A DNA stretch of 64,000 nt from an uncultured Chloroflexia bacterium (GTDB lineage: Bacteria > Chloroflexota > Anaerolineae > B4-G1 > SLSP01). A program made the position numbers and the translations under genes. This document shows positions 49,800 to 56,332 of this stretch, piece after piece (position 1 is the stretch's first letter; each line of letters opens with the position of its first letter). The notes beneath the pieces are model-generated. The model did not search any database and was not told where the DNA came from. It was given only the letters and a program-made list of their open reading frames with translations. The stretch spans positions 1 through 64,000 of the forward strand of contig CAVVUS010000010.1 of assembly GCA_963751345.1 (NCBI GenBank). Reading direction: 5' to 3'.

Positions 49800-50453
49800 G
49801 TGACCAAGTACTTCATTGCTGTGGCGGGTAGCATCGGCGTCGGCAAGTCGACGCTCACATCGCTCTTGAGCCAGCGCCTCAAGTGGGAGCCTTTTCTGGA
49901 AGGGGTAGGGGACAACCCTTACCTCGCAGATTTCTACGAGGATATGGAGAAATGGAGCTTCCATTCCCAGGTGTTCTTTCTGGCGAGACGGCTGCTGCAC
50001 CATCGACAGCTTCTGGAACGTCCAAACTCCGTGATACAGGATCGGACTGTCTACGAGGATGCCGAGATCTTCGCCCGCAACCTCTATATGCAAGGGGCGA
50101 TGAGCGAGCGTGACTATGCGACCTATTCAGAGCTCTACCGCGCCGTGACCTCCATCCTACCGCCGCCGAATCTCGTCATCTATCTACGTGCCTCCGTGGC
50201 CACCTTGCAGTCGCGGATCCGGTTGCGTGGGCGAAACTACGAGCGCCAGATCAGCGATGATTATCTGCAGCAGTTGAACCGGCTCTACGAAGACTGGTTC
50301 GATCATTTCTCGCTCTGTCCGGTCTTGACGGTTCCTGCAGACCGGCTCGACTTTGTCGCTAATCCTGATCACCTTGACTTGGTGACCGATCGAATTCTGG
50401 AACGTCTTCGCGGTAAGGAAGTCGTCCAGCTCAGCGATACAGGCCAAGCATGA
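49800..50453 (+). CDS. deoxynucleoside kinase
   Basis: 'AGSIGVGKST', 'NPYLADFY', 'QDRTVYED', 'RGRNYE'. Confidence 0.9.
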   Translation: MTKYFIAVAGSIGVGKSTLTSLLSQRLKWEPFLEGVGDNPYLADFYEDMEKWSFHSQVFFLARRLLHHRQLLERPNSVIQDRTVYEDAEIFARNLYMQGAMSERDYATYSELYRAVTSILPPPNLVIYLRASVATLQSRIRLRGRNYERQISDDYLQQLNRLYEDWFDHFSLCPVLTVPADRLDFVANPDHLDLVTDRILERLRGKEVVQLSDTGQA

Positions 50454-51548
50454 ACTACGAACGGTTTTTCGAGGCATACCCCGACGCTGTCGTTGTGCTT
50501 GACCACGAAGGGCGGATTCTCCATGCGAACCACGCTGCTCAGGCACTCCTGGGAGTGCCTGTACCGGCTCGCGCTGAGGAGCCTGTCACCATAGATTTGG
50601 CCAAGCTTGGCATCGTTGAGGAAGACTTCGAGGAGCTCCGCCGGAAAACCTTGGATGGGAGTGCGCTCGCTTGGGAGTTCGAGTCACCGAGGGCCGAGGG
50701 GGAGGCGCAGCTCTGGCTGCAGGCGAGGTTCTCTCCTTTGGTCGATGACATCGTCGCGGCCGACTACCTACCTGTGGACAGGGCACGACATCACGGATCG
50801 GGTCGACCTGGAGCGGAGACGTCAGGATTTTGTCTATATGATCGTTCACGATCTACGGGTCCCTCTGGGGAATATCCAGAACAGCCTGGATCTCGTGCTC
50901 TCCGCATGGCGCGAGCGGGACCTAACCATCCCGGTCGAACAGATTCTGATCATCGGGCTGCGCAGCACCCGCAAAATGGAGCTGCTGGTGAGCGATATTC
51001 TGGACGTTGCCCGCCTCCAATCCAACCAGCGGACCCTGGCCGTGGCCGAGATTGATGTAGTTGGTATGGTAAGAGAGGCCGTTGAGGCGGTCACGTCGAC
51101 TGCCAATCGGCATGGCCACACGATAAGCGTTGACACGCCCCCCGATTTGCCGACCTTGGATGGGGATCCGGATCTATTGACACGCATCCTCGTGAACCTG
51201 CTCTCCAATGCGGTCAAGTATGTGCAGGATGGCGGCAGGATCGCCGTGGGTGTCCAGGCTGACGATGAGGTCTTCCGGTTTAGCGTCATCGACAACGGGC
51301 CAGGTATCCCGCCTGAGAGCCAGGATTACGTCTTTGAGCTCTTTTCCCGGGGACAGTCGAAGCGTGTGTCGGGCGCAGGCATTGGCCTGGCCTTCTGCAA
51401 GCTGGCTGTGAATGCGCATGGGGGGCGGATTTGGGTGGAGAGTGAGCTGGGGGCGGGCTGCTCATTCTATTTCACGATCCCCCGTGTCCTCCCGGGAGAT
51501 GCCGTCTATGCCGCAGACTATTACGGAAACCGGGGGCTCGAGGCATGA
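50450..51548 (+). CDS. PAS domain sensor histidine kinase (frameshift near 50765)
   Basis: PAS 'PDAVVVLD..GRI..AN'; 'VHDLRVPL', 'NLLSNAVKY', 'DNGPG', 'GAGIGL'. Confidence 0.85.
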
Positions 51549-53769: not shown

Positions 53770-54248
53770 TTACCTCAGGTACGTCAATAAGTGCGACAGC
53801 GCCGCAGTCGCGGCGCTGTCGTTGTTCTCCTGTCGGTCACCCGTAAAGTGATGCCGCCATGCCCAGCACTCGCCTGGGACGGCCAGCCCGATGTAATAGA
53901 GCCCCAAGGGCTTGTGAATCGTGGCGCCTGTTGGGCCGGCGATTCCCGTGATGCTCATCGCGACTTCGGTGCCTGCAGCCTGGCAGGCCCCGCGGGCCAT
54001 CTCCAGGGCCACCTGTGCGCTGACGGCGCCCCAACGGCCGAGACTCTCCTCCCGAACGCCCAGGAGACCCACCTTGACCTCGTTGGCATAGGCGATGACG
54101 CCGCCCTGGAAATATGCCGAGCTACCCGGCTCTGACGTGATCAGGTGCCCAAGCAGCCCGCCGGTTGCAGACTCCGCCACAGCGAGTCGCCACCTACGTG
54201 CCAGCAGGCGTGGATGCGATTTGCTTGACGAGCATCCGGTCCTCTCAT
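53770..54248 (-). CDS. pncC: nicotinamide-mononucleotide deamidase (CinA C-terminal domain); frameshift near 54210
   Basis: 'AVAESATGG', 'PGSSAYF', 'GAVS', 'SITGIAGP'. Confidence 0.85.
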
Positions 54249-54251
54249 TCT

Positions 54252-56332
54252 CTAGGCAGATAGCTGATTGCGCACCATCGTGACAAGCGAGTTGGCTCGC
54301 AGCGAGGCCAGGTTGTAGCACGTACCGCCCAGATGATCGGCCAGAGCCTGGGCCAAACCCTTGTCATAGTCCACGCTCTCCATGTTGATGACGATCGACC
54401 TGATCTTCTCTTCCTGGATCTGTTCGGCGATGTGATAGGCCTCAACCTGGGGGGGCAGGTCGCCCATCGAGACGTTGCCTGCTCCATCTGTCAGAATGAC
54501 GAGGAGCGGAACGAGTTCGGGGTAGTGGCGAATCTCCTTGTCAATCGTATGGTGAGCCAACCACAGACCCGCCGCAAGTGGGGTCTTCCCGCCGACCGGC
54601 AGGTTCGTGAGCATCCGCTTCGCGAGATCGACGCTGTTGGTGGGCGGCAGCACGAGCGTGGCGCGGTCCTTCTGAAAGACGACCATCCCCACGCGGTCCC
54701 GACGTTGGTAAGCGTCCGTGAGCAGCGACAGGATCGCTCCCTTGGTTGCCTCCATTCGCTCGGAGACTGCCATCGACCACGACGCATCGACGATGAAGAT
54801 GATCAGATTCGCTGAGCGGCGCACCCGGACTTTCTTCTGATAGTCACCGGGGCGAAGCAAGAGTGCACGTTCCTCCGGGTCGTCGCACGCGCGGGCGATT
54901 TGGAAGGGGGCTGCGGCTCGCAAGGTGGCGTCAAACGCCAAATCCGACGCATCGCTCGGAGAGGATTCGAAGCCAGAATACCTGCCGCGCTTCCGTGTCG
55001 TACGGGTGCGGCTGCGCCGCCCGCCCGTGGAACGCACCATGCGATCCTGCGGGGTCTCGAACCTGCGTGGCTGAAAGATCTCACCAGGGTCGATAAACTT
55101 GCCGCCTTCCCACCACTTGCCATCGGTGGGCCATTCGGGGACGTCTTGCTCGAAGGGTTCCGGTTGAGCCGAGTCTGAGGCCTGCGCCTCTGCGTCACTC
55201 GGCTCAACCTCTAGGCTTTTTTTTCTCGGCCCTCCCCTGAGACATCTCCCTCATAGGTCGTTTCCCGGTTTTTGGGCTGGGATTCCTCTGCGCGTTCCCT
55301 GGAAGCAGCGACCATCTTGTCCAGTTGCTCGATCGAGGTCTGCACTTCGTCGAAGGGTCTCCGTTTGAGCCGGTGCGGTAGGGCCAGCTCTGCGGCCAGA
55401 AGGATATCCCTGTCTGTGACGTAACGGCGGTCTTCCCATGCTGCGTGTGCGACTGCGGTCTTGAGAATGACGAGATCGCCCCGATGACCGTCCACCCCGA
55501 GGCCCGCCATCATCTCGGCAATGGTGGCCATGTCGGCCCGCGTGTAGCGTACCTCAGGAAGAAGATGCCGGGCCACCTCTATGCGTTCAGCGAGTGAGGC
55601 TTCCTGTGGGGCCCATTCCTCGTAGAAGGCCTGTCCGTACTGCTCATAGGTCAGATTTCTCTCCATGATCGCCATACGAGCGCGTGCATCGTGAACCCCC
55701 GTCACGTCCACACACAGGGCGAAGCGATCGAGGAGTTGTGGCCGCAGGTCGCCCTCTTCCGGATTCATCGTTCCGACGAGGATGAAGCGCGCCGGGTGCT
55801 GGAAGGAGATTCCCTCCCGCTCGACATTGTTCACACCCATCGCGGCAGCGTCCAACAGAACGTCCACGATATGGTCATCCAAGAGGTTTACCTCGTCGAC
55901 GTAGAGAATGCCGCGATTCGCCGCTGCGAGGACACCCGGTTCGAAACGCCGCTCGCCTTTTTGGATAGCTCGTTCGATGTCCAGCGTGCCGACAACCCGA
56001 TCCTCGGTCGCGCCGATCGGCAGTTCGACAAACGGGACCTGTCTCGTCGCCGCCGGGAGGGTTTCGCCTTGCTGAACTCGGGTCCGGCAGTTCGTGCACC
56101 AGGTGGCTGGTTGATCGGGATCGCAGTTGAACGCGCCATCCGCCACGACCTTGATCTCGGGCAGCAGAGCTGCGAGACCACGGGCAGCCGTAGACTTCGC
56201 TGTGCCGCGCTCACCTCGGATCAGCACGCCGCCGATACGGAAGTTGATCGCATTGAGGATGAGCGCGCGCTTCATCCTCTCCTGATTGACAATTGCTGTG
56301 AAGGGAAAGACTAATCGTTCGTGGTCGGCCAC
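54252..56332 (-). CDS. ChlD/BchD-like chelatase subunit (AAA+ plus vWA, ~690 aa) expressed via -1 frameshift at 55217-55224
   Basis: -1 frame is open from the A8 run through an acidic/Pro linker into the vWA ('VDASWSM', 'GGKTPL', 'LTDG'). Confidence 0.8.
55162..55237 (-). other. -1 programmed ribosomal frameshift cassette
   Basis: GGGGAGGG, then A_AAA_AAA, GCC TAG, then a 13-bp stem GGTTGAGCCGAGT/ACTCGGCTCAACC starting 7 nt after the A-run. Confidence 0.8.
55211..56332 (-). CDS. ChlI/BchI-like AAA+ chelatase ATPase subunit (373 aa, zero-frame product)
   Basis: 'FPFTAIVNQE', 'GERGTAKS', 'YVDEVNLL', 'NPEEGDLRPQLLDRF'; ends EKKA*. Confidence 0.9.
   Translation of the reverse strand: MADHERLVFPFTAIVNQERMKRALILNAINFRIGGVLIRGERGTAKSTAARGLAALLPEIKVVADGAFNCDPDQPATWCTNCRTRVQQGETLPAATRQVPFVELPIGATEDRVVGTLDIERAIQKGERRFEPGVLAAANRGILYVDEVNLLDDHIVDVLLDAAAMGVNNVEREGISFQHPARFILVGTMNPEEGDLRPQLLDRFALCVDVTGVHDARARMAIMERNLTYEQYGQAFYEEWAPQEASLAERIEVARHLLPEVRYTRADMATIAEMMAGLGVDGHRGDLVILKTAVAHAAWEDRRYVTDRDILLAAELALPHRLKRRPFDEVQTSIEQLDKMVAASRERAEESQPKNRETTYEGDVSGEGREKKA

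Follow-up and report, generated by a model that had tools for sequence, protein, structure and literature searches.

The window analysed here, 64,000 nucleotides (nt) from an uncultured Chloroflexia bacterium (contig CAVVUS010000010.1, positions 1 to 64,000), carries on its minus strand a chelatase-like gene that is split between two overlapping reading frames. The upstream open reading frame (ORF) encodes an AAA+ ATPase resembling the chelatase subunit ChlI, and the overlapping -1 frame encodes a linker and a von Willebrand factor A (vWA) domain resembling the C-terminal part of ChlD. The frames meet at a run of eight adenines (A8), which is followed by a predicted stem-loop. Our analysis suggests that this one gene very probably makes both a short AAA+ protein and a longer AAA+/vWA protein by a -1 slip at the A8 run. 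The features of the locus are as follows.

55211..56332, minus strand: 0-frame ORF of 373 amino acids (aa), a ChlI-like AAA+ ATPase and putative short product, ending EKKA-TAG (ORF list; Pfam; NCBIfam; 8osf alignment).
55251..55253, minus strand: TGA closing the -1 frame upstream, 12 codons before the slip site (translation).
55231..55235, minus strand: GGAGG resembling a Shine-Dalgarno (SD) sequence, a candidate 5' stimulator (sequence; only partly conserved across relatives).
55217..55224, minus strand: A8 run, the candidate slippery site (sequence).
55217-55223, minus strand: heptamer A_AAA_AAA in X_XXY_YYZ phase, within the A8 run (sequence).
55211..55213, minus strand: 0-frame stop TAG, one codon past the A8 run (sequence, ORF list).
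55162..55209, minus strand: predicted 3' stem-loop with an outer helix of 13 base pairs (bp) and an inner helix of 5 bp (folding, z = -3.81).
54252..55217, minus strand: -1 frame of 321 codons plus stop, with an acidic/Pro linker, a W-P-x-x-G-x-W-W-E-G-G segment and the vWA domain (translation, TIGR02442).
54300..54803, minus strand: vWA or integrin-I domain, in which the D-x-S-x-S motif of the MIDAS type (an adhesion site that depends on metal ions), read by eye, is D-A-S-W-S (Pfam VWA residues 139-306, VWA_2).

On the minus strand the AAA+ ORF ends TCA GGG GAG GGC CGA GAA AAA AAA GCC TAG. From 55250 the -1 frame is open to its stop at 54252-54254, and both frames are open together over only about 40 nt, a stretch that contains the A8 run. 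The 71 codons that follow the upstream stop of the -1 frame include no start codon; the frame's first ATG, GTG or TTG is the ATG at 55040, 59 codons past the slip site (residue 60). Slipping by -1 on the second AAA would yield a product of 372 + 321 = 693 aa, close to the approximately 690 aa estimated in an earlier reading of the DNA made without database searches (the sequence-only reading), whose statements on the frames, the A8 run, the TAG codon, the stem and the GGAGG element all hold at their coordinates. The run is the sole A/T run of at least 7 in the 64-kb window, and the whole genome (5.4 Mb, 63% G+C) has 21 runs of exactly 7 and 12 of at least 8; an A8 run at this place therefore exceeds chance expectation.

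The upstream ORF matches the Pfam families Mg_chelatase, AAA_lid_2 and AAA_5 and aligns with the solved ChlI structure 8osf at 347.8 bits over residues 3-339. Its match to the NCBIfam model TIGR02442 ('putative cobaltochelatase') covers model positions 1-347 with 503.7 bits, and TIGR02030 gives 421.7 bits. The -1 frame matches Pfam VWA and VWA_2, TIGR02442 at positions 357-640 (260.9 bits) and the integrin-I domain of BchD in 2x31 (72.6 bits). Because TIGR02442 is covered at 1-347 in frame 0 and then at 357-640 in frame -1, the alignments identify the two frames as collinear halves of one family model. The curated cut-off of this hypothetical-equivalog model is 779.45 bits; scored separately, each half lies under it, and their simple sum of 764.6 is slightly below. 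In-frame orthologues score 771-802 bits. The Walker A motif, near position 56200 of the window, is GERGTAKST, with alanine in place of the glycine that precedes the lysine in the G-x-x-G-x-G-K-S-T of ChlI. This variant is family-wide: across loci L005-L124, GERGTAKST makes up 105 of 115 motif hits, GERGTGKST 6 and GEKGTAKST 4.

The linker ties the two halves together. In tblastn comparisons of the -1 frame with relatives, matches start between residues 1 and 24, ahead of the first possible start codon (residue 60), and the 59 codons before that ATG are conserved, including the W-P-x-x-G-x-W-W-E-G-G segment. In in-frame orthologues the same linker is contiguous with the AAA+ part.

The split arrangement is widespread. 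We searched 41 related genomes, the window's own included, with TIGR02442 and found an orthologue in 40; the other (G020) gave weak matches only. Twenty-four of the loci, counting that of the window, are -1 splits, and every one has an A-run in the frame overlap (A7 in 8, A8 in 13, A9 in 3). Another 14 are in frame, 12 of them with A9 at the same place and two (L010, L044) with no run, and two loci are cut by contig ends. A second set comprised 80 loci from named contigs of metagenome-assembled genomes (MAGs), mostly uncultured Chloroflexota labelled Anaerolineae, with protein identity up to 99%. Of these, 73 could be classified, the other 7 missing a part or having the parts far apart. All but one of the classified loci (72/73) are -1 splits with the run in the overlap (26 A7, 18 A8, 26 A9, 2 A10); the remaining locus is in frame with A9.

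The run itself appears to be under selection. The two sets overlap in genomes and together give 90 unique cassettes, which were chosen for having a run; it is uninterrupted in all 90, and it is absent from only 2 of the 14 in-frame relatives. Elsewhere in the same genes, lysine is encoded by AAA 1023 times and by AAG 1072 times (49% AAA). Since the two codons are used about equally outside the run, a need for Lys-Lys does not explain its unbroken adenines, and these counts indicate that selection acts on the nucleotides beyond the encoded residues. Within the genus, run length varies only by substitution at the run's 5' end, with no insertion or deletion, so the frame relation is unchanged across the genus. 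The 0-frame TAG lies one codon past the run in 17 of 18 genus-level cassettes (alignment A1), the exception being L031, with TAA five codons past. The A8 count in the window is matched in other data: A8 is also read in two Logan contigs, which come from two runs of a single study and cross the site without a gap and with 3-4 substitutions. Contigs of this kind cover the site in 2 of 4 runs at a depth of about 3, and the study may be the window's source campaign.

Downstream of the run, GGTTGAGCCGAGT (55197-55209) pairs with ACTCGGCTCAACC (55162-55174) over 13 bp and encloses the inner stem GAGGC/GCCTC. The stem, which begins 7 nt past the A8 run, is the minimum-free-energy fold of the region (-41.4 kcal/mol, z = -3.81), equalled by none of 200 shuffles. 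In the 18 genus-level cassettes the 7-nt spacer from run to stem is free of gaps throughout. The outer helix is 89.3% paired over these cassettes; 4 of its 13 pairs are invariant and 5 have changed on both sides. With both helices taken together, 82.0% of cells are paired, compared with 25.9-45.0% in controls that shift the 3' strand by 1-3 columns, and the covariation score of 0.158 (shuffle mean 0.088) is reached by none of 500 shuffles. Both the conserved Lys-Lys-x-stop and the covarying stem that the sequence-only reading had proposed to look for in orthologues are thus found. At the same distance from the run, three further genera of the family carry a stem that differs in sequence and is of the CCUGAGG/CCUCAGG type (L024, z = -3.6; L037, z = -4.1; L034, only -0.7).

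On the 5' side, GGAGG ends 6 nt before the A8 run and 7 nt before the A_AAA_AAA heptamer, in agreement with the spacing of about 7 nt noted earlier, and the stretch also codes for Gly-Glu-Gly. The 3' end of the genome's 16S rRNA carries the canonical anti-SD sequence CCUCC, and genes for both tRNA-Lys(UUU) and tRNA-Lys(CUU) are present.

To compare run length with structure, the 66 nt after the run were folded for each unique cassette, with 100 dinucleotide shuffles apiece. The results by class are:

-1 split, A7: n = 26, median z -2.62, z < -2 in 17.
-1 split, A8: n = 21, median z -3.41, z < -2 in 20.
-1 split, A9: n = 28, median z -0.27, z < -2 in 3.
-1 split, A10: n = 2, median z -0.19, z < -2 in 0.
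In-frame, A9: n = 13, median z -0.02, z < -2 in 0.

A fold with z < -2 is thus found in 37 of 47 A7/A8 forms as against 3 of 43 A9/A10 forms (30 split, 13 in-frame). The end of the run coincides with a codon boundary in each of the 47 A7/A8 cassettes, so that A_AAA_AAA is in phase; the A9 splits vary, with 23, 3 and 2 cassettes in the three phases. An SD-like 4-mer occurs 3-14 nt before the heptamer in 34 of the 47 A7/A8 cassettes and in 4 of the 30 split A9/A10 cassettes. This pairing of short runs with a stem and of long runs with none is what would be expected if short runs need a stimulated ribosomal slip and long runs can rely on polymerase slippage. We treat it as a lead and not as a test, because the genomes are kin and represent few independent lineages.

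In-frame fusions with no stem, which the sequence-only reading had set down as an observation against recoding, do exist in sister families. Most of them keep the A9 run at the same site (12/14 among the relatives), and for this reason they do not refute recoding. A class-level sample added 39 in-frame genes (L126-L164), of which 29 have a run at the site between the AAA+ part and the linker (A9 in 16, A10 in 4, A7 in 9) and 10 have none, among them those of the CobN-bearing genomes G085 and G127. A downstream fold with z < -2 is seen in 0 of 9 A7, 1 of 16 A9 and 0 of 4 A10 genes. In L140, L147, L148 and L152, A9 is directly followed by TGA in the -1 frame, so that a slip would lead straight to a stop and yield a short ChlI-like protein. 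These observations suggest that the fused in-frame genes may also make a short product. The other two frames close unusually early (position quantile at most 0.08) in 9 of 13 in-frame genes; we considered such out-of-frame stops as proof of a dnaX-like design and rejected them as proof, given the exceptions L005, L016 and L017 and the absence of a significant stem from all 9 A7 in-frame genes.

The partner expected of a chelatase motor was sought next to the gene and across genomes. The genome of the window (49 contigs, 93.4% complete, 5.6% contamination) gave 0 matches to PF02514, the CobN/ChlH/BchH family, and a search with TIGR02030 for a second ChlI-like gene (genome G000) gave no other match above 27 bits. 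The genome check for cobN/bchH and a separate chlI proposed earlier thus found neither, and the claim that one gene supplies both the ChlI-like and the ChlD-like protein is strengthened by this result together with the conservation of the linker upstream of any -1-frame start. The CobN family is present in only one of the 41 related genomes (G028), where it adjoins a second copy of the gene with no run (L044, C85:405-6041). In an even sample of 151 genomes of the class, each at least 85% complete, a TIGR02442-like gene (E <= 1e-60) occurs in 136 and CobN in 11. Three genomes, G043 (C16:7864-14507), G090 and G166, have a separate cluster of ChlI, ChlD and CobN besides the orphan split gene. Because genomes with CobN carry separate or run-less ChlI/ChlD genes with it elsewhere, the orphan recoded gene appears to be a paralogue distinct from the CobN-linked genes. 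The motif GERGTAKST was also tried as a mark of the orphan type and was rejected, as a motif of this kind is also present in L044, the CobN-linked paralogue.

When all ORFs of at least 90 aa were clustered across the 73 classified MAG loci together with as much as 6 kb of flanking DNA, no partner gene emerged that was shared beyond close kin. The commonest neighbour families, CinA in 18 loci and others in 15, 14 and 13, are housekeeping genes, and since they are not shared beyond kin, the gene context offers no clue to the client of the motor. With no CobN/ChlH gene found in the genome, the gene content indicates that in this organism the protein does not act as a subunit in a class I chelatase of the conventional kind. 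The client is probably not a CobN/ChlH-bound tetrapyrrole, in line with the earlier suggestion that the AAA+/vWA pair may not be a metal chelatase.

Frameshifted chlD genes are already known, as the sequence-only reading had stated, and sequence comparison places the locus among these fs-chlD genes. Antonov et al. (2013, PMC3711429) report a cluster of 23 'magnesium chelatase' genes with a -1 frameshift, spread over six genera of which Herpetosiphon belongs to the Chloroflexi, and give 63% (A11), 40% (A9) and 10% (A7) frameshifting for three chelatase cassettes in E. coli reporters. Atkins et al. (2016, PMC5009743) describe purifying selection on the A_AAA_AAR site and a downstream structure whose sequence varies, and caution that the true ligand may differ. 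In Kuznetsov et al. (2022, PMC9227772), fs-chlD genes are assigned to all major prokaryotic phyla; the Chloroflexi with such genes include Brevefilum fermentans and several Anaerolineaceae, Anaerolinea thermophila UNI-1 is also named, and some Chloroflexi cases, lacking the large subunit and both the B12 and chlorophyll pathways, are given as 'function unclear'. The gene studied here shares with fs-chlD the overlap of a ChlI-like ORF with a -1 ORF for the C-terminal part of ChlD, a conserved, in-phase A_AAA_AAR site within the overlap (24/24 and 72/72 split loci), a downstream structure that varies in sequence between genera, and the lack of any separate small-subunit (chlI) gene found in the 93%-complete genome. 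It differs in coming from an uncultured Anaerolineae MAG lineage that is not among the species named in the portions of those papers at hand. Our literature search found no earlier report of stem covariation at genus level, the link between run length and stem, retention of the run in fusions, or class-wide counts; a 2020 fs-chlD paper and the supplements lay outside it and may contain these. What we add is the covariation of the stem, its association with short runs, the run kept in in-frame orthologues and the counts of 136/151 and 11/151, some of which may already be published.

Two forms of dnaX help to place the cassette. The E. coli dnaX gene has an A_AAA_AAG slip site with an upstream SD-like element and a downstream stem-loop. 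The present cassette likewise has three elements, namely a slippery Lys-Lys heptamer, an SD-like sequence on its 5' side and, a few nt downstream, a stem-loop, and its two putative products share an AAA+ N-terminal module and would, by analogy, join one machine. In contrast to dnaX, in which the long form is read in the 0 frame and the slip yields the short one, the polarity here is reversed; the SD spacing is 7 nt as against 10 nt in dnaX, and the heptamer ends in A instead of G in a genome that has tRNA-Lys(CUU). The dnaX gene of Thermus thermophilus reportedly gives two products by transcriptional slippage at a bare A9 run, with no stimulators. It resembles the stemless A9/A10 forms of our gene in sister lineages, and differs from the window's cassette, with its A8 run and conserved stem. 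At the protein level, the closest likeness is to ChlI/ChlD (BchI/BchD) and CobS/CobT: the AAA+ part matches ChlI (8osf), the vWA part matches BchD (2x31), and an acidic/Pro linker and a MIDAS motif are present. The difference from class I chelatases is that no CobN/ChlH/BchH gene was found in this genome.

We favour, with a probability of about 0.68, programmed -1 recoding in an fs-chlD-type gene, mainly by ribosomal frameshifting on A_AAA_AAA with the 3' stem. Standard decoding would give the 373-aa ChlI-like ATPase, ending at the TAG one codon past the run. A fraction of ribosomes, with two tRNA-Lys(UUU) on AAA AAA, would slip back by one base on A_AAA_AAA (55217-55223), held by the stem-loop 7 nt downstream and perhaps aided by GGAGG 7 nt upstream, and would continue in the -1 frame to complete the 693-aa ChlD-like form with AAA+ module, linker and vWA/MIDAS domain. 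By analogy with ChlI/ChlD and CobS/CobT, the two products may assemble into a mixed AAA+ motor, and the efficiency of the slip may set their ratio. We infer the slip itself, its ribosomal site, the co-assembly and the importance of the ratio from the DNA. The ribosomal route is preferred because the A7/A8 runs are in phase in 47/47 cassettes, the spacer is fixed at 7 nt, the stem covaries, other genera have stems of their own, and the genome has both tRNA-Lys(UUU) and the anti-SD sequence.

Several observations weigh against this explanation. Sister lineages have A9/A10 runs with no significant stem, so the stem is dispensable to the gene family. Within the genus, the inner helix is only 63.3% paired and poorly conserved, RNAalifold retains just the basal 8 bp of the stem, and the stem arms double as coding sequence. 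The SD-like 4-mer is missing from 13 of the 47 A7/A8 cassettes, and the 7-nt spacing in the window is shorter than the roughly 10-14 nt that are optimal for -1 stimulation in E. coli dnaX. Finally, A8 is at the length where slippage by RNA polymerase is said to begin, and part or most of the long product could therefore stem from A9 transcripts.

The last point leads to the alternative of programmed transcriptional realignment, which we consider unlikely as the main route and still the most serious competitor. Here the polymerase would stutter on A8/T8 and add one A, and ordinary translation of the A9 mRNA would give the 693-aa protein, ribosomal slip being nil or minor. Runs of at least 8 A are named as typical realignment sites, and reporter efficiency grew with run length, from 10% for A7 to 40% for A9 and 63% for A11 (PMC3711429). 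In our own comparisons, 27 of 30 split and 13 of 13 in-frame A9/A10 cassettes, and 19 of 20 class-level in-frame genes with such runs, have no significant structure; run phase varies in the A9/A10 sister lineages, and in-frame orthologues keep an A9/A10 run (12/14 relatives, 20/39 in the class sample). The out-of-frame stop straight after A9 in L140, L147, L148 and L152 is an arrangement reportedly shared with Thermus dnaX. Realignment does not, however, account for the covarying stem kept exactly 7 nt downstream in the genus, since a structure that is transcribed only after the run is unable to act on the polymerase at the run. A7, a poor site for polymerase slippage, occurs in many of the cassettes with a stem (of 26 unique A7 cassettes, 17 have z < -2), the run is in X_XXY_YYZ phase in all 47 A7/A8 forms, and the computed fold has no hairpin directly 5' of the run.

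Three other explanations appear very improbable. One is that the split arose from faulty sequencing or assembly, or from a frameshift that recently inactivated the gene, in which case an in-frame A9 fusion would be the true or the ancestral form. Homopolymers are indeed error-prone, in-frame A9 versions exist in sister families, and the same window holds an apparently broken gene (PAS/histidine kinase, 50450-51545) that is intact in a relative. Every split relative (24 of 24) nevertheless has this -1 split with its run, as do 72 of the 73 classified MAG loci, which were assembled independently. Substitutions produced the A7 variants and left the frame as it was, and conservation extends to the 0-frame stop and to the stem. 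Each half matches the family model with a strong score and shows no internal damage, and A8 is also read in two further contigs. Given the recurrent split, the covariation and the A8 in the Logan contigs, we conclude from these comparisons that the split is neither an assembly error nor a broken gene, and the earlier proposal of a functional cassette is upheld. It is similarly hard to credit two ordinary genes, with the vWA protein made by internal initiation or translational coupling and no fusion. Pipelines usually annotate such loci as two adjacent genes (PMC3711429), and an ATG is present at 55040; against this, the -1 frame has no ATG, GTG or TTG between the stop at 55251-55253 and that codon, the 59 codons before it are conserved and in in-frame orthologues contiguous with the AAA+ part, and TIGR02442 is covered collinearly. 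Phase variation at the DNA level, in which replication slippage toggles the tract between A8 and A9 and hence between split and fused forms, would fit the differences in run length and frame arrangement among related lineages. It is scarcely compatible with run lengths that change within the genus by 5' substitution and never by insertion or deletion, or with a conserved stem and 0-frame stop, unexpected for a simple contingency tract; no length variant was seen in the contigs over the site, at a depth of only about 3.

Beyond programmed ribosomal recoding at this locus, we tentatively propose a wider picture, which is possible rather than probable. Two-product expression would be a conserved trait of the gene in Anaerolineae whatever the frame arrangement: by ribosomal -1 slip with a stem, with or without an SD-like element, in A7/A8 lineages; by polymerase slippage in stemless A9/A10 lineages; and, in many fusions, with the short form made by slip in the polarity of dnaX. 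The client would be other than a CobN/ChlH-bound tetrapyrrole; on this reading the motor might, for example, serve the insertion of a cofactor or metal into another enzyme, as MoxR/vWA pairs do.

Some further observations concern the window and the data sets. A PAS-domain ORF (50450-51052, plus strand) and a HisKA/HATPase ORF (50607-51545, plus strand) overlap in different frames, and the relative L045 has one intact gene of 365 aa at this locus; the window differs by a single-base insertion or deletion near 50764, at a non-repetitive site. Unlike the chelatase-like split, this one has the look of an ordinary break in a gene or of an assembly error. A CinA/PncC-type ORF (53770-54321, minus strand), if taken from its earliest start codon, shares 70 nt with the end of the vWA frame; its orthologue in L045 has 154 aa as against 183 aa in the window, so the true start is probably further in. 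Among the MAG loci, L090, labelled Betaproteobacteria bacterium HGW-Betaproteobacteria-16, has a cassette that, over the stretch displayed, does not differ from those of the Anaerolineaceae/Chloroflexi loci L086 and L089, and its contig may be mis-binned. Loci L116 and L117 (Ruminiclostridium/Ruminococcus MAGs) and L124 (a Fibrobacterota MAG) have a different architecture, with ChlI-like and vWA-like parts about 1.1 kb apart. Genome G000 contains long homopolymers, namely A37 and A29 flanked by G15 runs, A54, and A16 (C18:128727-128840; C24:32258-32311; C15:18966-18981), which may be assembly artefacts or low-complexity inserts.

For annotation, our results mean that the locus is to be described as a single gene that contains a -1 recoding site and has two products, instead of two genes, a pseudogene or an assembly error. 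They add a large uncultured clade to a known recoding family, whose series of run lengths forms a natural set for separating ribosomal from transcriptional slippage. They also sharpen a question already in print, the role of a ChlI/ChlD-type AAA+/vWA motor that has no CobN/ChlH partner, through the difference between 136 of 151 genomes with the gene and 11 of 151 with CobN.

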